DNA of 64,000 nt from a phage, in NCBI GenBank assembly GCA_025611195.1, contig GCA_025611195.1_4718.1; one strand, 5' to 3'. Numbering within the stretch: position 1 is the first letter of the stretch; every line of letters begins with the position of its first letter. The notes under the pieces were generated by a model. The model worked only from the letters and a program-made list of their open reading frames with translations. It did no database searches and was not told where the DNA came from. Of this stretch, positions 3,793-58,584 are shown one piece after another. The position numbers and the translations under genes were made by a program.

Positions 3793-4206
3793 TTATGTTC
3801 TAATATGCACATCGTCAATCCCCTCGGTAATCCAGCCGATGGGAAGGACAATCGTTGTTATCGTGTTATGGGTGTAGGGATTAAGAAAATGGAAATAGTA
3901 ATTTTTGTTAGACTGTTCGATGCGCAGCTCGAGCTGCGCATCTTCAGGTAACCGCAACCAAGCACCGTACAGTTCATTAAACTTACGCTGAATTTTACCG
4001 GGGTTCATTGGAACCCTACGACCACGGTGGCGTAGCTGGCGTAATGATTCAATCAAACACTCAGAGATACCCATCACCGTTCCGTTATCGCTTGTATCAA
4101 TAACGATGAACTCATGTGACCCACGGCCATGATAGAATCCAGCAACAAGCGCAACGGCGACAACGACAACCGTACCGATACCTACGTACCAATAGTAAAC
4201 GTCCAT
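3793..4206 (-). CDS. small membrane protein
   Basis: ORF 3793..4227 trimmed to ATG 4206 (GAGG upstream); N-terminal hydrophobic helix VGIGTVVVVAVALVAGF. Confidence 0.45.
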   Translation of the reverse strand: MDVYYWYVGIGTVVVVAVALVAGFYHGRGSHEFIVIDTSDNGTVMGISECLIESLRQLRHRGRRVPMNPGKIQRKFNELYGAWLRLPEDAQLELRIEQSNKNYYFHFLNPYTHNTITTIVLPIGWITEGIDDVHIRT

Positions 4207-4751: not shown

Positions 4752-4846
4752 CTTCCCCTCATACGCATCTTGAAGATTAGTTAAAAACAACAAAAGAAAA
4801 AACGATATAAAGCAAGGTCCTCTGATATCAGAGGACCTTGGATCAA

Positions 4847-6505: not shown

Positions 6506-6809
6506 ATGCTGCTAAATATCGGGAATAAGAATTAACAAAATAGGAAAATGGTGTGAATATAACACAAAGGAGGGAGATGATTATGTTACTCATTCTAATG
6601 GAGAGGGCGTTGCTGGCGGGTATATGCGCATTCTCTGTTAAACACGCTGTTGCTATCATGACTGAAGAAAGGCGTAATACGCATAATGTATTACGCTGAA
6701 AACAATGTCTGCATTAGTGTATGACGAGAAATCGTCGAGGCCCCCGTCTTCACGAGGGCCAACACCTATGCGCGACTATTTACCATCTACGAAACAAAGG
6801 GTTATAAAC

Positions 6810-10476: not shown

Positions 10477-12933
10477 TTAAATAATCGTGACGTGTTCGTT
10501 ATACGTTTCAGGGAGGATGATGTTCGTTTTATCAAGAACCATACACTCAGCTTTACGGAATGATGCATGGTTGATAACATAGTGGCTGATGAACCACACT
10601 TGGCTTACGCGATGACCATCGACCAAACGACGAACAAAATCCATGGCATTAGATTGGTGCTGCGGATCAAATGTTGATGCGAATTCATCTAACATCAACG
10701 GATAATCCGTAAACCCCTTGTAATGCATCATCGCGATGATAAACGCGATATTGATAATTTCCTTTTGTCCCTTACTCCCATAAACAATATCTTTTCGCGG
10801 CGTCGGATACTTCTCAGTTAAAAGCGGAAAACGATAGTTCAATCCTTGCGCGTCGATAGCACACGGAAGTATCTGAAGTTGGTATTCCCAAATACTCGAA
10901 ATGATACCGTTCATGTATTCAACGAACGCGTTGATTGGACCAGCGATTGTTTCGGCAATCAATCCGTTGGATGGACTCAACTCATCCAGAACAAGTTGTG
11001 CGTAACTGAGCTGTTCTTCCACCTCTTTTTGCGTTGTTTCCAACTGAGCCAGAAGCTGCTGGTCGGTTTTAGCTTCCTGTAACTGCTGTTCGACATGACT
11101 TATCCGGCGAACCGTATCAGACATCGCAGCACGTAGTGATTTCGTGTAAAGATGCTGTAGATACTCCAACCACAGTTGCGTTAACGCTTTATCGCTACTA
11201 TCAGAACGTACCTGATCTTCCATAATCGCCGTAATGGTTTCCAATCTACCTTCCGTAGCTGTGATGGCTTGTGTTAACCGTTCAACGGTTGTTAACAACT
11301 CTGTCCTGTTCTTATAAAGCAGTTCTCGACGTTGCTGTAATGGTTCAACATCAACCGCTTGTACACGTTCGAGCATATCCTGAAGATGTTTACGTTCTTG
11401 CTCGGCTTGTGTATAACGCGCGAGTTTCTCGAATGCAAGCAACCAGTCGTTAATGATGCCAATACTGCGGAATCCTAAACCGTTTTTGCGGCCTTCTTCC
11501 AGCAGATTATCCCACATGGGTTTAATAGCGTAATAATCTTTCGTCCAACGCGTTAACTGACGATGCTGTTCCATCCAAAGCGTATAACGCTGCACCTTCT
11601 CATTAAGTTCGGCTAACGATTTCTCCTGTTCTTCAACCCAAGCGCGACCCTTCTGAATACGTTGTTCAATGCTCGCTTTGCTGGTCTTTTCTGTCTCACC
11701 AACATGAAAGCGATAATTGCATTTTGGACAGCTGGTCTGGGGTTGATGGTTAAGATGGTCAAGATGCGCTTCCAAATCGGCTAACGCGTGTTTCGCGTTA
11801 CGCAAACGCATTCGTGCCGCCTCTTCCTCCTTGATGTAAGCTTCAGCATCGTAAACATGATAGGTGTTGTCGGTATCAATCCATTCTTGCAATAGTTCCG
11901 TTAACGGAGCCTGAACTTGCGTGAGCTGTTGTAAACAAACCGCGGCGTCCAGATTCATCGTTAAAAGCTCACCTGGATGATCATGCTGAAGTTGTTCGTC
12001 CAAACAGGCAAGGCGGGCTTTAATCTGATCGATATCGCCTTCTCCAGACTGTTTCAACTGGTCAAGGATATTATCGATACCCAACAGCTCGTCAACCTGA
12101 CTTTCGAGTTTCGCATTCGCATTCGCGAGTTGCTCTCTTAGTTCAGCCAGATTCCGCTGTTCTTGTTGCGATGTTCCTCCTTGGTAACGAACAACCGCAC
12201 GAAGAAGCTCGCGATTAAAATGATGGGCACGTTGTGCGGATTCCAGAAGCTGTCGTTGATCAACATCGCTATCGAATAACGGCAATCCCATCATCGCTTC
12301 GAGCGCCGAGCGTTGCTGCTTTAACTCTGCTTCCAATCCCTGGTGGTCGGTTCCAGTGTATTTCGCTTCAATTCGCTGTGATGTTTCAACCAACTTATTC
12401 AATGTGTGCTCATTCACCGCTTTCAGTGAACGTACCTGTTGCTTAACAACCTGAAACAGCTCAAGCGCATAATCGACGTTAACCGGGCATATCTGCGTTA
12501 ATCGTTCGCGACGTTTCATCGGTCCCATTTCGGTGAACTGGTAAGCTGTTTCGTAACCTAACAACAAACGAATGGTGTCGTCATTAAGTTCGAAATGTTC
12601 TTCGATCAGTTTCCACTGGGCTGGTTGTGTGCCACCACCATTCAAGTTCTCACTGTCGTTAACGTAGAACTCGTGCTTAAACCCTTTTTCTAAACGACTG
12701 ATAAGACGGTATTGCTTATTACGGTGTTCGCAGCGGTACTCGTAATACCCGTCTTTATCAAAATCAGCGCGCTCGGGAACGGTTGGATACAGCAAAGGCA
12801 GTAGACTGCTCTTACCCGAACCATTACTACCTAGAATGAGTTGTACGGGATTATCTGGCCGGATGACCAGCTCCCGAATCATCCCGGTATCAAAACGATT
12901 GAATCCACGTAAGTGGAGATAGGTGCATCGCAT
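10477..12933 (-). CDS. SbcC/Rad50-like SMC-family ATPase
   Basis: N-terminal Walker A LILGSNGSGKSS, long central coiled coil with mid-protein CPKC zinc-hook, C-terminal Walker B LMLDEF and H-loop FISHY; start at 12933 or 12969 uncertain. Confidence 0.7.
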   Translation of the reverse strand: MRCTYLHLRGFNRFDTGMIRELVIRPDNPVQLILGSNGSGKSSLLPLLYPTVPERADFDKDGYYEYRCEHRNKQYRLISRLEKGFKHEFYVNDSENLNGGGTQPAQWKLIEEHFELNDDTIRLLLGYETAYQFTEMGPMKRRERLTQICPVNVDYALELFQVVKQQVRSLKAVNEHTLNKLVETSQRIEAKYTGTDHQGLEAELKQQRSALEAMMGLPLFDSDVDQRQLLESAQRAHHFNRELLRAVVRYQGGTSQQEQRNLAELREQLANANAKLESQVDELLGIDNILDQLKQSGEGDIDQIKARLACLDEQLQHDHPGELLTMNLDAAVCLQQLTQVQAPLTELLQEWIDTDNTYHVYDAEAYIKEEEAARMRLRNAKHALADLEAHLDHLNHQPQTSCPKCNYRFHVGETEKTSKASIEQRIQKGRAWVEEQEKSLAELNEKVQRYTLWMEQHRQLTRWTKDYYAIKPMWDNLLEEGRKNGLGFRSIGIINDWLLAFEKLARYTQAEQERKHLQDMLERVQAVDVEPLQQRRELLYKNRTELLTTVERLTQAITATEGRLETITAIMEDQVRSDSSDKALTQLWLEYLQHLYTKSLRAAMSDTVRRISHVEQQLQEAKTDQQLLAQLETTQKEVEEQLSYAQLVLDELSPSNGLIAETIAGPINAFVEYMNGIISSIWEYQLQILPCAIDAQGLNYRFPLLTEKYPTPRKDIVYGSKGQKEIINIAFIIAMMHYKGFTDYPLMLDEFASTFDPQHQSNAMDFVRRLVDGHRVSQVWFISHYVINHASFRKAECMVLDKTNIILPETYNEHVTII

Positions 12934-12960
12934 GCTATGATAATCCTTCTTCGATACCTT

Positions 12961-12976
12961 CTGAACCATGGTTCAG
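12961..12976. promoter_or_regulatory. perfect 16-bp palindrome CTGAACCATGGTTCAG
   Basis: In the divergent region between the SbcC-like gene and 13047..14135. Confidence 0.3.
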
Positions 12977-13046
12977 AATGCGAAGCTGAAGCCATACTTC
13001 AGCGTTATTTTCTATATCGTTATTTAAATCAGTAGGAGATTACAGC

Positions 13047-18911: not shown

Positions 18912-18929
18912 GGTAATATAGTCGTGAAA
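18912..18929 (-). promoter_or_regulatory. conserved TATATTAC-containing motif (candidate phage promoter)
   Basis: Plus-strand GGTAATATAGTCGTGAAA; about 90 nt upstream of the first gene of the small-gene cluster (ATG 18821). Confidence 0.45.
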
Positions 18930-45444: not shown

Positions 45445-46881
45445 TTACTTTTTCGATGACGTCTTCTCAAGAATCTTGAAAAAGGTCATACCTATACCGA
45501 CAACGGCCGCAGTTATACTCGCAGCGGCTTTCCAAACATCGACGTTACGTTGACGTCGCGCTTCTTCCGCTTCACGTTGTCTTTTTGCCTCTTCATCACG
45601 TCGACGTATCTCAGCAGCAAACTCGTCGTGCTTACGTTTGGCTTCTTCGTCTCGACGACGAAGTTCAGCGACGAATTCTTCATGTTTGCGTTTGGCCTCG
45701 TCATCACGACGTTTTAAATCAGCTTGATAATCTTCGTGTATTTGTCTACGTAGATCATCTTGACGTTTCATTTCGGCTTGGTGTTGTTCCATCCTACGTT
45801 TTGATTCGTCTCTAAGCTGATCGAGTTCGGCTTTGTGTTGTTCATCGCGCAGCTTTGCGTCGGCGCGATGCGCTTCGTGCATCTGTGCGATAACCGCCTT
45901 GTGTTCATCCGCCATACGCCGCATTTCAGCCATCACCCCTTTAAGGGTTTCTTCTGATGACTTACGTTCATAGCTACGCTGGTCGAAATCATTTTTGTAG
46001 GCTTCTTTTTGGATGGGGTCGCGCCAATGCAATGCCGATTCACGTGTCGGAAAAACATTATACTTCCACATCTCTTTTTCCAAATCTTCGACCGGTACGA
46101 AGACGGAGTCGTTATTCCCGAAGGTAACCAACATACCTGGCGCGCCTGCTCCATTCGTTGGTTTTATTTCGAACGCTTTCCCCAGCACGTTAACCCATAG
46201 GCTATACGGATTATGAAAGTCGGGCGGCGTCCAATGGATAGTGAGTTGCGTTCCGAGAATCCGGAAACCCTCTGTCTTTCCTGTCAAGCTCCGCGCACAT
46301 GTTGCGATGTAGGGGTGATCAATCCCTTTCGTAACATGGTCTGCGCTTTTGTATTCTCCTTTAACTTTTACGATTGCCACGTTGATTTGCGCGACATAAA
46401 TAGGTTGATTAAAGTTCAACGTGTTGAGGTCAATTTGACATATCTCATCCAGCGTATCGTACCAGTCTTGCTGGTCTAATAGACGCGGTATTTTCTCTGT
46501 GTTAACGGTGCGATGGATATGCGGTTTCCTTATCGCATAACCGGTGCCGTTTTTAACGCGGAGTATATCCCGACGTCTACCCGCGTAGACGAAGTTTCTG
46601 AATGCACCATTCGCATTAGATATGTCATGGCTGTCAACTATTACAGGACTACGAAATTTTGAACGTCGTACGATCCTGAATGTATTGCCGTCCTCAACTC
46701 TACCAGGAATGTACTGGAACATATTGTCGGAGGTGATAACCAACACGGTATGGCCGGATTCATTAATACATGCCCACCCTAATTCCAGGTCATACAACGG
46801 TTCAGCATAACCGTCAATGCGATATGCGTGCGTACCATCCCACGGTTCGAACGCGGTATCACATATTGGCATGGAGGGCAT
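45445..46881 (-). CDS. coiled-coil protein with tandem RRRDEEAKRKHEEF repeats and C-terminal TM anchor
   Basis: ORF 45445..46887 (TTG) trimmed to ATG 46881 with GGAGG upstream; about three 18-aa charged repeats then hydrophobic AAASITAAVVGIGMTFF. Confidence 0.5.
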   Translation of the reverse strand: MPSMPICDTAFEPWDGTHAYRIDGYAEPLYDLELGWACINESGHTVLVITSDNMFQYIPGRVEDGNTFRIVRRSKFRSPVIVDSHDISNANGAFRNFVYAGRRRDILRVKNGTGYAIRKPHIHRTVNTEKIPRLLDQQDWYDTLDEICQIDLNTLNFNQPIYVAQINVAIVKVKGEYKSADHVTKGIDHPYIATCARSLTGKTEGFRILGTQLTIHWTPPDFHNPYSLWVNVLGKAFEIKPTNGAGAPGMLVTFGNNDSVFVPVEDLEKEMWKYNVFPTRESALHWRDPIQKEAYKNDFDQRSYERKSSEETLKGVMAEMRRMADEHKAVIAQMHEAHRADAKLRDEQHKAELDQLRDESKRRMEQHQAEMKRQDDLRRQIHEDYQADLKRRDDEAKRKHEEFVAELRRRDEEAKRKHDEFAAEIRRRDEEAKRQREAEEARRQRNVDVWKAAASITAAVVGIGMTFFKILEKTSSKK

Positions 46882-47031: not shown

Positions 47032-47055
47032 CACCTAGGTAATGTAAGCGTCAAA
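47032..47055 (-). promoter_or_regulatory. variant of the conserved motif (candidate promoter)
   Basis: Plus-strand CACCTAGGTAATGTAAGCGTCAAA; about 150 nt upstream of ATG 46881. Confidence 0.35.
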
Positions 47056-47089
47056 TTTTTTCTATTTATAACGATAAACGGCATAGAAA

Positions 47090-47119
47090 CCTCCCCCAAC
47101 CCTTACGGGCTGAGGGAGG
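47090..47119 (-). terminator. GC hairpin (family copy, inverted orientation) in capsid-gene 3' region
   Basis: CCTCCC/GGGAGG stem enclosing CCC-TTAC-GGG; a second hairpin CCGGA..TCCGG lies at 47140..47155. Confidence 0.4.
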
Positions 47120-47218
47120 CTGACTTATGTATCACGGTGCCGGATGAATGTCCGGTGCAATGAAACCATCCGCAACGTTGTCGTCAAGAATATCATCCAA
47201 CGAAGCAGCTACGGTAGT

Positions 47219-49441: not shown

Positions 49442-49590
49442 TGAAAGTATCCTTTACAGAATTAACTTATATAAGTCGGTCGATAGACCATAGCGTACAC
49501 GCGTGCATGCGCCACTATAGTATCAGTAAACACTTACCGTTATTGAGGTTGTGATACAACACTAAAAATGCCGCATAACTTTTCCCTACG

Positions 49591-50211
49591 TCACAAACGA
49601 CGCAGGCGATAATGGATGGAACGATTGGTGCAATATGAACGGAACAGCGGCAATTGCGCAACTTCCGCAAGACTCATATTAATTCGCAGATGTTCAATAA
49701 CGGCGCTGTAGTTATCAGCAATACGATCGCTCAATAACTCTTCTGCCAATAAAGGAAGACAATCGACAACAATCGCGATCACATCCTCATTAACATAACG
49801 CACCCGAACACTCAACGGACGTTTGTCTGGGCTGTAAGTTGGATCCGCCAAACGACGTTCAATATCACGCGGATAGCTCGTCAGTAAATGGTAATAACCA
49901 TTGTCATAACGATTGATGTACTCACACAGCACATCAACATTCTTCTCCGACGGCAAACCTGTTTCGTCATAGTGATACGCAAACATACCACCAAGTAGGT
50001 TGTTAAGATGTACCGCAGGGTTCGCTTGTTCGTGTTCTTTCGTGATGAAGAAAGGCACGTTTTGGGCTGCGAAATAAAAACCTACATCATTGGGCGATAG
50101 TATGCCGAAAAGACTTTTAGGATCCAACAGCACCTGTAAGTCATCACGCGCATTTCGAATAATCGCGTGTTCTACCCAATTCGGAACGACGAGATATCGG
50201 AGTTCCTTCAT
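49591..50211 (-). CDS. hypothetical protein
   Basis: 206-aa ORF immediately upstream of the capsid gene promoter region. Confidence 0.5.
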   Translation of the reverse strand: MKELRYLVVPNWVEHAIIRNARDDLQVLLDPKSLFGILSPNDVGFYFAAQNVPFFITKEHEQANPAVHLNNLLGGMFAYHYDETGLPSEKNVDVLCEYINRYDNGYYHLLTSYPRDIERRLADPTYSPDKRPLSVRVRYVNEDVIAIVVDCLPLLAEELLSDRIADNYSAVIEHLRINMSLAEVAQLPLFRSYCTNRSIHYRLRRL

Positions 50212-52267: not shown

Positions 52268-52669
52268 TTAAAACATACGTTCGTTTTTAGCACGTGCGGC
52301 CATTACCAGATCGTAGATACCCGCGGTTCGTAAACATTCGTCGTAGTAACGATGTGCGCCTTCCTCAGCCATCCATGATAACCCACGACTATCCGCAACA
52401 ATAACCAATTTGTTATTGTTGAATGCACACACAACACGGTAAGTCGCGTTGTTATTCGGATCGCGAGTGATCAGTTCATAGACACCGTTAACAGGTTTAC
52501 TGAATTCGCCATTTAACGGGACGAGTTCGGTAGTACCTTCAGCAAACGTTACGTTGATCGGAGAAGGATCTTTAGCGATAACAGTATATTCCACATTGTG
52601 TTCTTTACTGGTCATAATGCCGAAGTAAGAACTGATAGGAGAACGCGGTACACTAAGAATATTAAACAT
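52268..52669 (-). CDS. small hypothetical protein
   Basis: ORF 52268..52771 trimmed to ATG 52669 with AAGAGGA upstream. Confidence 0.45.
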   Translation of the reverse strand: MFNILSVPRSPISSYFGIMTSKEHNVEYTVIAKDPSPINVTFAEGTTELVPLNGEFSKPVNGVYELITRDPNNNATYRVVCAFNNNKLVIVADSRGLSWMAEEGAHRYYDECLRTAGIYDLVMAARAKNERMF

Positions 52670-52739: not shown

Positions 52740-53312
52740 TTAGACGATGAGTGACCAGGTGGTAAGCACACCGCTTGCGAATTCGAGCTTAAGACGTTTA
52801 CCGATAAGTTGTTGTTGAATCATCTTTTCAGTGATACGTCGATCTTGCTGAACCGCTTTATCAAACGCTTCTTTCGCTTCGGCTTGGTAGAAGTTCGTTT
52901 CTTCGTTGTCGTCGATCTCTTCGAGAGCGTCATCGTCGATGTCAGCAAGTTTCACTCGACCGTTTTCATCAGGTTGTTCTGCAGGCTCATTGTCATAAGG
53001 CGTGTCTTTTGTTGGTGCGACACGATGATGCAACTCGACCTGTGTTAACATGATCTCCATCTCACCATCGATAGGGATGATTTCATCGGCGCAGCCGTTT
53101 TCGGTCAGCTCTCGACTTTCCAGTAATGTCGTGGTGACAGAGAACACCTCTTCAACAGGAACCTCATCATCGTCGATAGTGTTAACCGTATTGCTGGTAA
53201 CTTCGGCAACGACCATCAAATCGAATGCGTGAGGATCACCTGGCATTTTGATTCCTGGAAGTTTGTTGAGGTACCAAGGATCGAGAATCATGATTTCTGG
53301 ATTAAACATCAT
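52740..53312 (-). CDS. acidic hypothetical protein
   Basis: 190-aa D/E-rich ORF with GAAAGG upstream of ATG. Confidence 0.45.
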   Translation of the reverse strand: MMFNPEIMILDPWYLNKLPGIKMPGDPHAFDLMVVAEVTSNTVNTIDDDEVPVEEVFSVTTTLLESRELTENGCADEIIPIDGEMEIMLTQVELHHRVAPTKDTPYDNEPAEQPDENGRVKLADIDDDALEEIDDNEETNFYQAEAKEAFDKAVQQDRRITEKMIQQQLIGKRLKLEFASGVLTTWSLIV

Positions 53313-53383
53313 TTTACCTTTCTATGTTAGGTGGATTGCGGATAGAAGAATCAATGCATAAACTAATTTAAGTTTGTTAAGGT

Positions 53384-54286
53384 TTACTTAGCCTTTGAGT
53401 TATGCGGACTAACATGCTGTTGTACTCGTTGGATTGTATCGTAGTACGGGTTAGATTGGTTGAACATGTTGTTGTGTGGGGGATAGCCATATGGCGCATT
53501 TTGCCTTGTTGGTGAGAAACCTTGTTGAGAAGGACGGTTTGAATTAACCGCGAGTACGTAGTAAACCAAATTTTGACGGTCGAATGTTCCTTCGTTTTTG
53601 AAAGTGTCGGCGTAGGCTTTTACCGCTGGAGTGAGCCTATCACCATCGGCTGTAATAATTGTACCGTCTGGGTAAACTTCCCGAACGACGCACCATGTTC
53701 CGATGAGAACATCTTTAGGTGCTGTATTACCATATCCGGTTGTAACGGTAAGGTAAGTATCGAACCCTTCAGAACAACAAGGATGACGATAGATGGGTCC
53801 TGTCATTTCCGTTCTATCGGTATCGCTACATTGTTCTATTGAGAGCGATGATGTGTCGGTTTTGAAATTGTCAAATTCTTTCTTTAAGTCGATTACGGGT
53901 TCTTTCGTATAGTACTTCTTGATTGCTTTGACGTAAAGATCAGGAACGGTTGTCAGCAATCCGTTATACCTGATTCTCAGGTTTTCGAGTAATCCAAAGA
54001 TGCTCGCGCATGCCTGTTCGCGAGGTTTTGTAAGATAAGAGATCCCCTCAGGAACGCTGGGATCTTTGAGAAAGAAGATTGCGTTATTGTCGTTGTGCGA
54101 TGCGTTGAAGAAAACGATTGATTCGATATATACGGAGCATAGGCTGTCATTGGCGTCGTCAGATAACACCCAGATGCACTCATCGGTCGTCTTGTTTAAA
54201 AGTTCTGTTTTGTCGACCAAACGTTGTTTCATTGCGAGGAAATGTGCCTGTTGTTCAGCAGTTAATTCACGATAAATAGTGGTCAT
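53384..54286 (-). CDS. hypothetical protein, paralog of 54372..55145
   Basis: ORF 53384..54364 trimmed to ATG 54286 (AAGGAG upstream); shared segment YRHPCCSEGFDTYLTVTTGYG...WCVVREVYPDGTIIT vs YIHPECHTTYDRYLTITGG...WRMIREIYPDGRIVT. Confidence 0.5.
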   Translation of the reverse strand: MTTIYRELTAEQQAHFLAMKQRLVDKTELLNKTTDECIWVLSDDANDSLCSVYIESIVFFNASHNDNNAIFFLKDPSVPEGISYLTKPREQACASIFGLLENLRIRYNGLLTTVPDLYVKAIKKYYTKEPVIDLKKEFDNFKTDTSSLSIEQCSDTDRTEMTGPIYRHPCCSEGFDTYLTVTTGYGNTAPKDVLIGTWCVVREVYPDGTIITADGDRLTPAVKAYADTFKNEGTFDRQNLVYYVLAVNSNRPSQQGFSPTRQNAPYGYPPHNNMFNQSNPYYDTIQRVQQHVSPHNSKAK

Positions 54287-54371
54287 GTTGGGCTCCTTGA
54301 TTACGATAAGGATGATTGCGGTTTTGTGGGTTTGGTAGGGCCCTAAACAAAGGAACCCTACCAATATTAGG

Positions 54372-55145
54372 TTAATCAGGATCGGCGTAGAAATGGTGAG
54401 GATAGCCGGAGTACGATCCTGCGTTACCGGCTATGGATTCTTTCTGGGAATCGACGACGAGCGCATAGAACTGTCGGGAATTTGTTAGCGTTGAGAAATA
54501 AGCGGAAAGGACTTTTTCATTCAATGCATCACAAGGTAGGCAGGTGCGACCGCAAAACGTCACGATACGGCCGTCAGGATAGATCTCACGAATCATTCTC
54601 CACTCACCGATATCCACTGGTGATGGCGCTGCTACACCACCTGTTATCGTTAAGTAACGATCGTACGTGGTATGGCATTCAGGATGAATATAGATCGGCT
54701 TGTTCGTTTCGACAGGTTCCGAAGTATCTCGACGACTAAGAAGCTCAACGACTTCAAGATAAATCGTTGGTAGATCGCGGAGAATACCGGTGCTACGACG
54801 TTTCTTTGTGATTCGCGGACGAATCTCGTTGAGAGCGTATTCGAGCTTACGTTCAGCTTCGTACGCATCGAGTTTTATCAAGCGACCCGGTTCATCGGAA
54901 TGATCCTGAGTTACGTAAACGAAATACGTGTCGCCTTTTGCAGCGTGAAAGATTCGAGCGACCTTAAATGTTTCTACGGTACGATAACCAAGGCGCGATT
55001 GATTTTCCACAGGAGAAAATATCCAATGCCGTCCTTCGTCAGCCTCAACAATTTCGTTGAAACTATCTGTCTGTTCTGGGACCTGGTAGTCAGCCAGTAA
55101 TGTGTCGAGAGCATCATCAGCCAGTTTGATGTAAATATCTGTCAT
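54372..55145 (-). CDS. hypothetical protein, paralog of 53384..54286
   Basis: ATG 55145 with GAGGA upstream; preceded by the TATATTAC-type motif and a palindrome. Confidence 0.5.
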   Translation of the reverse strand: MTDIYIKLADDALDTLLADYQVPEQTDSFNEIVEADEGRHWIFSPVENQSRLGYRTVETFKVARIFHAAKGDTYFVYVTQDHSDEPGRLIKLDAYEAERKLEYALNEIRPRITKKRRSTGILRDLPTIYLEVVELLSRRDTSEPVETNKPIYIHPECHTTYDRYLTITGGVAAPSPVDIGEWRMIREIYPDGRIVTFCGRTCLPCDALNEKVLSAYFSTLTNSRQFYALVVDSQKESIAGNAGSYSGYPHHFYADPD

Positions 55146-55201
55146 GTTTGTATCCTCGGTTATTAAGAGAAATTTACAGTGATAACAGTAAGCGTTGTTA
55201 T

Positions 55202-55225
55202 CACCTAGGTAATATAGTCGCGAAA
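55202..55225 (-). promoter_or_regulatory. conserved TATATTAC-containing motif (candidate promoter) overlapped by a palindrome
   Basis: Plus-strand CACCTAGGTAATATAGTCGCGAAA; about 57 nt upstream of ATG 55145; inverted repeat GTGATAACA-N8-TGTTATCAC at 55179..55204. Confidence 0.45.
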
Positions 55226-55259
55226 TAAACTGGAGTAATGCGCTTAAGACAGCATAAAC

Positions 55260-55291
55260 CCCTCTCCCAACCCGTCAGGGAAGGGAGAGGG
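55260..55291 (-). terminator. conserved two-tier GC hairpin (family copy)
   Basis: CCCTCTCCC/GGGAGAGGG stem, loop AACCCGTCAGGGAA; immediately after stop of 55296..56663. Confidence 0.45.
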
Positions 55292-55295
55292 AATA

Positions 55296-56663
55296 TTAAA
55301 CGGTTGGACGAACGGTATTGTCTTTTTCTGGTGCGATCCATAACGTGACCGTACCATGGCATGTCCACTGTGGTTCACGTACAGAAGAACCCGCCATCGT
55401 TACAGCGCAATCGGTACGCATGATGACCCCATATGCTTCGCAGAGGTTGTTATCCTGCATCCACACAACTTTAGCGGGCATACCGGGATACAACAGATCC
55501 ATGTTTGCGTATTCCCACACCAACTGCATTGTTCTACCGCGTAATCCAGCAGTATTGCTTATTTCACGCCATCGGTTATCGGTTACGCGTCCCATCCCTT
55601 TCGCCACCTTCACGTTATCGCTACGCTCTTCAGTTACGTACTCGCTAACGTTTACGGTACGACTGATTATGGTATCGCCCCCCTTTGATAATGTCATCCC
55701 CTGACTCATCTGACTTGCCGAAACAAAACGCCCACCCGCATTACCTAACAACGAAGCCGCGTTATTGACGTCGCTTACCGACGCCCCTCTCGTACATGCA
55801 ATTTCCACGTATTTGTCGCGATTGATCCAGGTCTTGTCCATACCCGGAAACATATCGGCAGGATAGTTGTAAAAGATAGCTGTACGTCGACCGTCAGAGA
55901 AACGGGTTTCGTCGTATAAGGGGTAGATATACAGATACGGGGATTGATAATAACAACCGACATCTGCTGAATAAATACCAACCTGGTTCTGGATTTTATC
56001 TACGAGATCCATCGCATTGGTACCGTGTGGAAGAATAAGCAACTTGAATGGGTTGTCGTTATTCGGTGCAACGATATCCACACCCTGCATTTTGAATCCG
56101 GTGTCAGCTTCAACCGCAGAAAGTATCTTGCTGAATTCAAGGCGCAACACATCCAGCACTTTCGATCCAGTATAGTTCTCACCGGTTTCTGATTGCATGA
56201 AGCTTTCAAGAACAGGATCGAACAGTTGAAATTGAAGATCGACCATTTGTTCGTAGTCTTTCTTCGAAGAATCGGTTGCGGTACGTTCGTCGGTAGCAGA
56301 CATACGACTGTCTACGGTTGTTAAACAGACCGCCCGGTAGACATAAGCCTGTGCGGCATCGTCTACGGTTTGGCGTTGTCCGCGCATCAGGCTGTACGCC
56401 TGCACGATGATGCGCATTTTAAGTTGTTGTTGGTACGGTAGAATGTATTTTCCGTAACTGCCTGGTGGAAACTTTACAGAGATATAAAGTTCATCCCCTG
56501 CGTTACGTTCATAGTCTCGATACGTGTGGACTTGAGTCACTAAAGGAACAGACACCGTCATTGACGGCGTGATTAATTCCGCGGTGACTTTATACGCAAC
56601 AGCAACAGCTTCCTGCGCAAACGTACCGATATACCGTCCTAACGGCGTCTGTTTGTAATCCAT
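55296..56663 (-). CDS. putative virion protein
   Basis: 455-aa ORF in a tightly overlapping run of long minus-strand genes near the capsid gene. Confidence 0.55.
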   Translation of the reverse strand: MDYKQTPLGRYIGTFAQEAVAVAYKVTAELITPSMTVSVPLVTQVHTYRDYERNAGDELYISVKFPPGSYGKYILPYQQQLKMRIIVQAYSLMRGQRQTVDDAAQAYVYRAVCLTTVDSRMSATDERTATDSSKKDYEQMVDLQFQLFDPVLESFMQSETGENYTGSKVLDVLRLEFSKILSAVEADTGFKMQGVDIVAPNNDNPFKLLILPHGTNAMDLVDKIQNQVGIYSADVGCYYQSPYLYIYPLYDETRFSDGRRTAIFYNYPADMFPGMDKTWINRDKYVEIACTRGASVSDVNNAASLLGNAGGRFVSASQMSQGMTLSKGGDTIISRTVNVSEYVTEERSDNVKVAKGMGRVTDNRWREISNTAGLRGRTMQLVWEYANMDLLYPGMPAKVVWMQDNNLCEAYGVIMRTDCAVTMAGSSVREPQWTCHGTVTLWIAPEKDNTVRPTV

Positions 56664-56665
56664 GT

Positions 56666-57271
56666 TTAACGACCCCGTTGCTGTTGTTGAATGATGAATT
56701 CTTCGATCTTCGTGCCACGGAATTCGCTGTGACGAACTGCTTGCAGCTGCTCTTCAACGGTTGGACCAGCGTGGAGACCACCACGACGTGCACGGTTGAT
56801 GCCGATGCGACGACGTTGACCGATTTCACGCAAACGTGAAGATAATCCGCTCATTTCGGTTGGGTCTTTAATACGACCGCGTGCAACGTTCCACAGACCA
56901 CCCATGAACTCTTCGAGAATACGACTGGCTTCGAGAGATGGTACGCGTGCGTTAGGATCGTTTTCGAGATTGTATTTAACGTATTCCGTGTGTTCCAGAA
57001 GAAGCATGAACATCTTCATGGCGTTCACGTCAGGATTTGCAATACGCATAGGGACACCACGAGAATGCTTCTCAGCAGCCTGCGGTACGGTGAGCTGTGC
57101 GGGCACCTCTTCGTTCATGGTCATATCGTCGATTTCTGCAACCCCTGAAGAGTAGACACCGCTGACCTCATTGGTGTAATTGTCCACCATGAATTTACGG
57201 GGAATCCAGAATTCGAATTTACGTTCAAATAGACGTTTGGTTGGAGTATCTTTAACGTGTTGTAGACTCAT
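56666..57271 (-). CDS. hypothetical protein
   Basis: 201-aa ORF whose stop overlaps the next start. Confidence 0.5.
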   Translation of the reverse strand: MSLQHVKDTPTKRLFERKFEFWIPRKFMVDNYTNEVSGVYSSGVAEIDDMTMNEEVPAQLTVPQAAEKHSRGVPMRIANPDVNAMKMFMLLLEHTEYVKYNLENDPNARVPSLEASRILEEFMGGLWNVARGRIKDPTEMSGLSSRLREIGQRRRIGINRARRGGLHAGPTVEEQLQAVRHSEFRGTKIEEFIIQQQQRGR

Positions 57272-58584
57272 GGCTCAATAGCTCCTGCTCGTAACAGCAT
57301 AATAACGAACGGTGTGAAATAATAACGGTCCAGCGGAGAAAGCAACGGTAATGCGTCAACCATCTGTTTCAGTGCTGGGTGACTGATCGCTTTCTCATCG
57401 ACCATATCACGCACCATACTCTCAATGATTGTCATTGGGGCTTGGTTGCGATAGAAAGCCTCTGTGAAAACATAGTACGGATCGTCTGCTACCGATGGAA
57501 ATAACGGAACGTCGTCATACTCCATCGATGTATGATTGGTCACCAATGGGTTTGTCGGCGGTGTGTTTTCAGGCACAGCCAACTCTTTACCTACGTCTTC
57601 ACCGAGCGACGTGGTCGCAGGCCACATACAGAATCGCGCCCCGCTAAAACGAATCCCACCTGCAGCTGGGTACTGATAGAAACGCTTTGTTGACAACAGT
57701 GTGAATTTCACCGTCAACCGCGCCTCGTCTTCCCGACGTCCGTCCATGACCCATTCAAAGACAGAAATCGCGTTCGCTTCCTGGCTATCATCTACATTAA
57801 GACGTCCGAAGTTCCATGAGGGTTTTCCTTCAAGCGACGACCATAATTTCGTAAACGCGTTAACACACCAGGGGTCGTAGGTTGCAGCATCTTGACCAGG
57901 AACAAGCAGCGTGTTTAATTCACGGCTGTAAAATTCGTGGTAATACGCGTGACAAAGTCCCAGCGCACGACGGAGATAATCATACTTACGATTGTATTTC
58001 TCCGTTGCCATTACGGGATGTTTTCCGTGCTTTAACTGGTCTTGGTCGTACAGTGTATCCTCAACGATTTTCGCTTCCAGTTCGATAAGCTGTTTTTCGT
58101 CAAGAATACGCTGGAAGGAAATATCGCATTCGTAAGCCGGTGCTAAGCTGATGTTCTTCGGTGTGATTCTGGTGATAGTGTACACCGCGATACGATGATC
58201 GAGACCGGAGATTAACAGCATGTTACCTAAAAGAGGAACCGATACTGCCGGAAGTATACACGTACCCTCGGATTGAAAACGTGCGGTACCGTTGTCGTAC
58301 GACGGCGTCAATGACGACATTAACTTGATAGGGTAATGTCTGATACGACGGTACTGTTGTTCGGCGATATCGCGGTTAGCTTGAAAACTGCTTTGTTCAT
58401 CATCACGACCGAGAATCTGTTCGTAATAATCACATTCTACGGAATAACCGGATGCGTAATTCACCAGTCCGATTTGACTATTGTATTGCTCATCCACCAC
58501 CGCAGAACGATAAACATCGTCGCGAGCCTTCGCAGGCTGTTGGGGGTTGATGATGGGTTTCGCGGGCTTCTTAGCGAGCGCCAT
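57268..58584 (-). CDS. putative virion protein
   Basis: 438-aa ORF overlapping both neighbours by a few nt. Confidence 0.55.
   Translation of the reverse strand: MALAKKPAKPIINPQQPAKARDDVYRSAVVDEQYNSQIGLVNYASGYSVECDYYEQILGRDDEQSSFQANRDIAEQQYRRIRHYPIKLMSSLTPSYDNGTARFQSEGTCILPAVSVPLLGNMLLISGLDHRIAVYTITRITPKNISLAPAYECDISFQRILDEKQLIELEAKIVEDTLYDQDQLKHGKHPVMATEKYNRKYDYLRRALGLCHAYYHEFYSRELNTLLVPGQDAATYDPWCVNAFTKLWSSLEGKPSWNFGRLNVDDSQEANAISVFEWVMDGRREDEARLTVKFTLLSTKRFYQYPAAGGIRFSGARFCMWPATTSLGEDVGKELAVPENTPPTNPLVTNHTSMEYDDVPLFPSVADDPYYVFTEAFYRNQAPMTIIESMVRDMVDEKAISHPALKQMVDALPLLSPLDRYYFTPFVIMLLRAGAIEP

Follow-up and report, generated by a model that had tools for sequence, protein, structure and literature searches.

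An inverted repeat at the predicted start site of an early promoter in a Goslar-like jumbo phage as a possible leader stem-loop

The stretch of DNA analyzed here, referred to as the window, comprises 64 kb of a phage contig (GCA_025611195.1_4718.1). Positions 53000 to 58000 share 95% identity with Escherichia phage vB_EcoM_Goslar over 64% of the query, and, judged by its sequence, the window phage is a Goslar-like, nucleus-forming Escherichia coli jumbo phage. The locus contains, on the minus strand, the terminator of an upstream gene, a predicted promoter, a palindrome, and two genes (Table 1), the second of which had been claimed in the original prediction to be a paralogue of the first, as BLASTP bore out. 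Pfam and PHROGs searches with four neighboring proteins returned nothing for the two paralogues. An AF2 model of the 257-aa protein (pLDDT, 68.5) had no match with an E value below 0.4 when compared with the PDB by Foldseek, and this fold search gives no hint of a DNA-binding or other function. The 257-aa protein has 19 homologues (P0001 to P0019), mostly on roughly 240-kb contigs; these contigs (~236 to 250 kb) belong to assemblies labeled E. coli, Salmonella enterica, and Shigella sonnei, and Goslar-like phage genomes appear to be present in isolate assemblies. A search of the locus against complete E. coli RefSeq genomes and PLSDB plasmids gave no match.

Table 1. Features of the locus, with positions in the window
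Feature	Position	Strand	Description
Paralogue, 300-aa protein	53384-54286	minus	37% identical over 119 aa to the 257-aa protein by BLASTP (E = 3e-17)
First gene of the unit, 257-aa protein	54372-55145	minus	No Pfam/PHROG match
Second predicted leader hairpin	55149-55178	minus	In the MFE fold of the 60-nt leader, the Shine-Dalgarno GAGGA (55153-55157) is paired with UUCUC (55167-55171)
Palindrome/predicted leader stem-loop	55179-55204	minus	Arms 55196-55204 and 55179-55187, loop 55188-55195
Predicted transcription start G	55202	minus	By homology; invariant G 6 nt past ATTAC in Goslar-like copies and phiKZ
Spacer CTAGGT, 6 nt, -6 to -1	55203-55208	minus	YTnnnT consensus in all copies; last two to three bases in the stem
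Predicted early promoter core, TATATTAC	55209-55216	minus	Identical octamer upstream of phiKZ early genes and Goslar chmA (gp246)
Upstream promoter part, T-rich tract plus C(A/G)CGAC, here CGCGAC; ccagtttatttcgcgac	55217-55233	minus	Common to 14 Goslar and 4 window copies
Terminator hairpin of the upstream gene (55296-56663)	55259-55292	minus	GC-rich; -26.8 kcal/mol, z = -4.25; followed by UUUAU at 55254-55258

The stop codon of the upstream gene lies at 55296 and is followed by the terminator hairpin, an equivalent of which is found in Goslar and at all orthologous loci. With its tail, GGGGTTTATGCTGT, the terminator agrees with the consensus of phiKZ terminators, ...GGBYTTATKYYGT, which includes a TTAT motif (PMC10914365). 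The tail GG(G/T)TTTATGC(T/C)GT is seen on terminator hairpins ahead of early promoters both here (55254 to 55292, minus strand) and at 47080 to 47120, and since it matches the phiKZ consensus, the termination signal seems to be common to the chimalliviruses of Pseudomonas and E. coli. At the other end of the intergenic region, the ATG of the 257-aa gene (55145) comes after the second predicted leader hairpin. The UUCUC and GAGGA pentamers of this hairpin are invariant in all orthologous leaders and therefore offer no covariation to test; going by the predicted fold, the hairpin could serve translational control. A sigma-70 promoter scan of positions 54900 to 55500 found no sigma-70-like site, and an Rfam scan of the same interval returned only two chance-level snoRNA matches (E = 0.3 to 0.5), both away from the palindrome.

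The palindrome is present as originally described, an inverted repeat reading GTGATAACA gtaagcgt TGTTATCAC on the plus strand, with perfect 9-bp arms and an 8-nt loop, and an additional wobble pair, G55205-T55178, is possible. Its reported overlap with a conserved motif was also found, with 3 nt of the right-hand arm (plus strand) shared with CACCTAGGTAAT (55202 to 55213). On the minus strand, the junction reads TATATTAC CTAGGT G-ATAACA.... At promoters with the spacer CTAGGT, TACCTAGGTA (55202 to 55211 in the window) is itself a perfect 10-bp palindrome containing CCTAGG, which explains a minus-strand match to the motif with two mismatches.

Perfect inverted repeats of at least 9 bp with a loop of at most 12 nt occur at nine loci in the 64-kb window, versus a mean of ~3.3 hits in composition-matched simulated sequences, with nested hits at one locus counted separately; on this control, the size of the palindrome alone is not beyond chance in 64 kb. 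By our own arithmetic, ~0.008 such repeats would be expected to land within ~40 nt of any of the four promoters, and the palindrome is notable through its position and conservation, not its size. Compared with shuffled sequences, the fold has z scores of -3.8 to -4.4; the 45 nt from the predicted +1 fold at -6.7 kcal/mol (z = -4.3), and the 60-nt leader folds at -10.9 kcal/mol (z = -3.8). The palindrome does not look like an intrinsic terminator; it was not flagged by the terminator scan, has G-C pairs at 3 of 9 positions, and is followed by the tail CUGUAAAUUU. The DnaA box and the Fur box match the palindrome in neither sequence nor spacing, and both identities were rejected.

Elsewhere in the window, two divergent genes are separated by a perfect 20-bp palindrome, TTCTGAACCATGGTTCAGAA (12959 to 12978), which includes part or all of the start codon (ATG) of ORF 10477 to 12969 on the minus strand, and a 24-bp loopless palindrome (3919 to 3942) lies within ORF 3793 to 4206. 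Of the other long perfect inverted repeats, the one at 4813 to 4840 is intergenic and, given its T-rich minus-strand tail, probably acts as a terminator; others were found just ahead of the ORF at 6705 (6672 to 6696) and inside an ORF (52396 to 52421).

The conserved motif, TAYATTAC-N6-GA in full, occurs four times in the window (55216, 47046, 18920, and 5542) and 14 times in Goslar. Every copy is directed toward a gene, and in Goslar one of them precedes chmA (gp246), which encodes the nuclear shell. All four window copies are on the minus strand, and one strand likewise carries all 14 Goslar copies. The identical core, TATATTAC-N5-T-G, precedes phiKZ early genes, including the shell gene PHIKZ054, and the octamer TATATTAC has 22 copies in phiKZ. 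The early promoters of phiKZ, AR9, and 201phi2-1 are similar in having a T-rich tract upstream, in preceding early genes such as the nuclear-shell gene, and in numbering 14 to 30 copies per genome (PMC5312081, PMC8244752); in phiKZ, the T-rich element lies upstream of -19 (PMC8244752). The motif thus combines an AT-rich core and an upstream T-rich tract with a purine 6 nt downstream and a co-oriented position before known early genes. That it is a promoter, as originally claimed, agrees with these comparisons, by which we read it as a virion-RNA-polymerase early promoter of the form TAYATTAC-N5-T-G. Unlike phiKZ-like early promoters, the Goslar-like copies have CACGRC in front of the core and YT behind it, and in many of them the start region is part of an inverted repeat that comes next, of which phiKZ has no excess.

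AR9 early promoters read AAATATATATTAT-(6N)-G+1, with the start on that G (PMC5312081; see also PMC7598289), and in phiKZ and phiR1-37, transcription starts 6 nt past the consensus (PMC5312081; see also PMC7598289, PMC8244752). The G after 6 nt is invariant in 4 of 4 window copies and 14 of 14 Goslar copies and is also found in phiKZ copies. From these mapped starts, the shared core, and the invariant G, we infer a minus-strand start at G55202, which is base 3 of the left arm of the palindrome and corresponds to G49718 (minus strand) in Goslar; a literature search for a 5'-end map of Goslar-like phages found none. Relative to this predicted +1, the palindrome covers -2 to +24 with its center near +11, and with the genes on the minus strand, it does sit where a start on that strand was originally expected.

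A perfect dyad in this position, centered near +11 and covering +1, resembles a lac-type operator (lacO1), and it had originally been read as a repressor operator; on this reading, a phage-encoded dimeric DNA-binding protein would bind to it and block the promoter. The half-site TGATAAnA is found again at the paralogous promoter upstream of Goslar gp075, and the Goslar annotation includes putative DNA-binding proteins, gp115 ("weakly similar to transcriptional regulator") and gp119 (SANT/Myb). The operator-like geometry stands, but variable spacing, a C/G swap, and unrelated repeats at other promoters leave the repressor mechanism unsupported, and we consider it highly improbable.

Related leaders were gathered by pattern scans of IMG/VR and metagenomes and from contigs encoding homologues of the 257-aa protein, giving 19 distinct sequences, each a version of the window leader or of the paralogous leader that precedes Goslar gp075. 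When the RNA is taken from the predicted +1, the same 5'-terminal hairpin is formed in 16 of the 19. In an alignment of 17 sequences, 89% of cells are paired versus 32 to 74% in slid registers, and the pairs with -3, -2, and -1 are formed in 15, 16, and 17 of the 17 leaders, respectively. Within this alignment, pair 13-38 is seen as G-C, G-U, or A-U and pair 20-31 as C-G or G-C; the gp075-type paralogous leaders have a C-to-G change in one arm and the matching G-to-C change in the other. The covariation, with a score reached by 13 of 500 shuffles of the 17-sequence alignment, is modest, with few apparently independent events at two pairs. Opposite -1 and -2, the partners read AC, AT, GC, or GT, all of which can pair with T-1 and G-2 on the sense strand, by Watson-Crick or wobble pairing. 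The spacing between the arms is variable, being N8 in the window, one nucleotide shorter in L095, N10 in unit 3 of L027, and N13 in L071 (the range for homologous leaders is also listed as N8, N9, N10, and N13).

The GATAACA/TGTTATC stem occurs with four different loops at two loci, and the window-type hairpin is retained where the downstream proteins are only 47 to 58% identical. Damaged stems were found in L097 and L098, which have two central mismatches, and in L070. The leader of the latter (L070:974+) is a hybrid of a gp075-type left arm (GATAAGAG) with a gp047-type loop and right arm, its stem is mismatched, and it looks like a recombination product of paralogous promoter cassettes.

A stem kept with wobble-compatible and two seemingly compensatory changes, variable spacing, and a C/G swap fits a nucleic-acid stem and would be awkward for a dimeric repressor. 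In contrast to a lac-type operator, the half-site spacing is not fixed, the C/G swap is symmetric in both arms, and the outer positions are asymmetric in duplex DNA yet retain G-U pairing in one strand. Nor was a candidate repressor found near the site, the two downstream proteins having no Pfam, PHROG, or PDB-fold match. A gene-specific operator is therefore unlikely on the grounds of variable spacing, the C/G swap, wobble-only variation, and the lack of a candidate protein nearby.

Between the gp046 and gp048 homologues, Goslar has a 62-aa ORF, gp047, and the window has the two paralogous genes. The same promoter and leader are thus found with different cargo: gp047 in Goslar and L007, the paralogue pair in the window, and a distant paralogue in L043. 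The paralogue pair is syntenic in L035, L090 to L092, and L095 to L101, and L090 has an additional 210-aa gene upstream of the cassette. Comparison of window positions 53384 to 55145 with Goslar 49584 to 49772 (L001:3381-3569) shows a break at the start codon, only ATGAC being common. The cassette of terminator, promoter, and leader is ~90% conserved while the downstream genes differ, and the composite of terminator and promoter is present at both 55216 and 47046.

This arrangement is similar to the PeSL cassettes of T4-type phages, in which stem-loops can overlap promoter elements (PMC2839356). As in those, an intergenic terminator hairpin and an early promoter are combined and repeated in the genome, and different ORFans lie behind the same cassette (gp047 in Goslar, the two paralogues in the window). 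Unlike those, the window promoter is of the phage-polymerase type and not a sigma-70 promoter, and the palindrome is not terminator-like, since it has no U-tract and sits downstream of the core.

Many Goslar-like early promoters have a different inverted repeat at the same place, with the left arm formed by their own start region. Examples are CCTTCATGA-6-TCATGAAGG, CCTTAGTGA-6-TCACTAAGG, CCTCTATGA-6-TCATAGAGG, CCTGTTTGAC-4-GTCAAACAGG, TTCATGATGC-3-GCATCATGAA, and AGGTGAAGC-13-GCTTCACCT, the middle figure being the loop length. The original claim that the other three motif copies of the window lack the palindrome is correct insofar as GATAACA...TGTTATC occurs only at 55216, but at 18920 another stem-loop, unlike that of the palindrome, begins at the same predicted +1; in the fold test, the copies at 47046 and 5542 had no start-site hairpin. 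Because the repeats are so diverse among promoters, a repressor operator shared by them is ruled out.

Across 21 nonredundant promoter families, positions -7 to +3 pair better with the sequence downstream of the same promoter than with the downstream sequences of the others (permutation P = 1e-4), and the excess is also found for -7 to -1 alone (P = 0.0013). A hairpin from +1 or +2 occurs in 10 of the 21 families and in 20% of GA-start controls (P = 0.004). With -7 to -1 included, the structure excess (-9.9 versus -6.8 kcal/mol, P = 7e-4) is greater than that for +1 to +36 (P = 0.013). The sense strand folds slightly better than the antisense strand by -0.85 kcal/mol (P = 0.08), with 22 versus 12 G-U pairs. 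About half of the early promoters, that of chmA among them, are without such a repeat, and stem length, loop size (3 to 13 nt), and the place of +1 in the stem differ between promoters.

Start-region complementarity was not in excess at 20 promoters of the whole phiKZ genome (P = 0.72, 0.30, and 0.33), and inspection by eye of the early promoters in the first 50 kb of AR9 found no obvious start-site hairpins. From the negative phiKZ test, the hairpin is not general to promoters of this type but is a trait of the Goslar lineage. The phiKZ nuclear-shell leader (45582 to 45630, L084) contains three consecutive loopless palindromes, TAGTATACTA, CTAAGTACTTAG, and TTCTTGATCAAGAA.

Pairing reaches -2 or -3 at the window promoter and up to -7 at others. 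RNA-level selection cannot explain pairs at -1 to -7, since an RNA starting at the G would be without those bases. Three explanations remain: the start may lie further upstream, the repeat may act in DNA, or it may have arisen by fold-back or template-switch copying together with cassette recombination. Since the pairing extends 2 to 7 nt upstream of the predicted start, both a DNA-level role and a mutational by-product have to be considered.

As a DNA-level element, the repeat would form a hairpin of the nontemplate strand in the open or scrunched complex, or a cruciform, and would tune initiation or escape of the virion polymerase or mask the start at shut-off. The preferential pairing of the nontranscribed positions -7 to -1 with their own downstream sequence and the greater structure excess when these positions are included point in this direction, as do the -3, -2, and -1 pairs kept in 15 to 17 of 17 sequences of the window family. 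Perfect arms of 9 to 10 bp that join -7 to +2 or +3 with +8 or +9 to +17 (Goslar 226695, L013, L027, and L030) would be impossible in an RNA starting at the G. On the other hand, the varying place of +1, loop size, and stem length present no uniform geometry to a polymerase, wobble pairs favor one strand, about half of the early promoters do without the repeat, and it is missing from phiKZ promoters with the same core. Moreover, no such mechanism is known for multisubunit virion polymerases, and we consider a DNA-level element unlikely.

The promoters of the N4 virion RNA polymerase are similar in that they combine a virion-packaged polymerase with early promoters that have an inverted repeat. 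By contrast, the N4 hairpins lie upstream of the start, have 5- to 7-bp stems and 3-nt loops, and occur at every early promoter of a single-subunit enzyme (PMC4496689). The repeats of the window lineage lie across or downstream of +1, are variable, and are absent from about half of the promoters. The position of the repeat, loops of 3 to 13 nt, and the absence of a hairpin at 47046 and 5542 do not fit an N4-type hairpin promoter.

In several related genomes, a module of 22 to 53 bp was found between TATATTAC and the old start region (L015:3046-3140; L027:8836-8640, minus strand; L030:6529, minus strand; L013:4372; L082:5258, minus strand; and Goslar 226695, minus strand, L006:30695). In each module, a new sequence resembling a start region (C-YTnnnTGA) is joined through a short loop to its exact inverted copy, and in most cases the module is followed by the conserved linker CGACG(C/T)(G/A)TAA..GTTAC. 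Two such units stand in tandem in L027. All pairs in the module stems are Watson-Crick pairs, without mismatches or wobble pairs. The 10-bp hairpin TTCATGATGC/GCATCATGAA has the loop CAT in L015:3046+ and ATG in unit 2 of L027, as after a DNA-level flip of the palindrome.

The inserts and the inverted loop lend some support to the third explanation, in which the repeats would be by-products of cassette evolution with little or no function, arising either through fold-back or template-switch copying or from recombination of paralogous cassettes. Perfect, wobble-free module stems are as expected for recent duplications, and the L070 hybrid of two paralogous leaders has a broken stem. Compensatory changes can be mimicked by template-switch correction. 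Against a by-product, the window-type hairpin has been retained although the downstream proteins diverged to 47 to 58% identity, several wobble states and varied loops occur with the stem intact, and the GATAACA/TGTTATC stem encloses four different loops at its two loci. We consider a by-product, too, unlikely. A broader conjecture, which we regard as distinctly unlikely, is that in the Goslar lineage the virion-polymerase start region is coupled to a downstream inverted copy that acts in DNA, for example, as a nontemplate hairpin or cruciform that sets promoter strength or switch-off, and that such copies spread as modules inserted between the TATATTAC core and the old start.

From the sequence, its fold and conservation, the promoter identified by homology, and the different stems at other early promoters, we tentatively prefer to read the palindrome as a 5'-terminal leader stem-loop on an early mRNA, carried within a cassette of terminator, promoter, and leader. 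A Goslar-like virion RNA polymerase would transcribe the early mRNA from the TATATTAC-N5-T-G promoter. The transcript from G55202 would begin 5'-GAUAACA-acgcuuac-UGUUAUC..., a predicted 7-bp hairpin with zero unpaired 5' nucleotides. In E. coli, 5' stem-loops shield transcripts from RppH and from 5'-end-dependent decay by RNase E (PMC2948425). By analogy with ompA, RNAI, and rpsT, the leader hairpin would hinder attack by RppH and 5'-end-dependent RNase E, and the early message may thereby live longer. The order of the cassette would be terminator, promoter, leader hairpin, and anti-SD/SD hairpin, kept while genes are swapped between genomes.

As in the T7 phi10 leader and T7 GGGAGA leaders, the left arm of the predicted window hairpin would be made up of the bases transcribed first, which are constrained by the promoter. 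With a start at G55202, the hairpin would also resemble the 5' stem-loops of ompA, RNAI, and rpsT in beginning 0 to 2 nt from the 5' end, inside the limit of 4 nt for such stems, and the host is again E. coli (PMC2948425). Unlike these systems, the window RNA would have a short, AU-rich stem (7 bp, -6.7 kcal/mol), and complementarity continues upstream of the predicted start, for which the known examples have no need. Besides this upstream pairing, the leader stem-loop reading is opposed by the natural variants with a broken stem (L097/L098 and L070), by the thin covariation, and by phiKZ early leaders, which are without such structure, so that a hairpin is not needed by this type of promoter.

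Promoter-proximal 5' hairpins, cassettes of promoters and stem-loops, and phiKZ-like early promoters are known already. The literature searched contained no description of start regions of these promoters being systematically coupled to an inverted copy further downstream, or of the hairpin modules. The timing and tuning of the first transcripts of nucleus-forming jumbo phages, which are made by the injected polymerase inside a vesicle, are poorly understood, and for the E. coli model Goslar, knowledge of early transcription is limited to the promoter consensus. A search for a repressor of the palindrome is probably the wrong experiment. A promoter-linked hairpin would offer a concrete target for mutations that probe the stability of early mRNA or initiation by the virion polymerase, one that varies from gene to gene and is exchanged along with the promoter. 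For engineering, a "consensus early promoter" cassette may act differently with and without the leader stem. If the inverted copy acts in DNA, it would add a new level to the promoter architecture of multisubunit viral polymerases.
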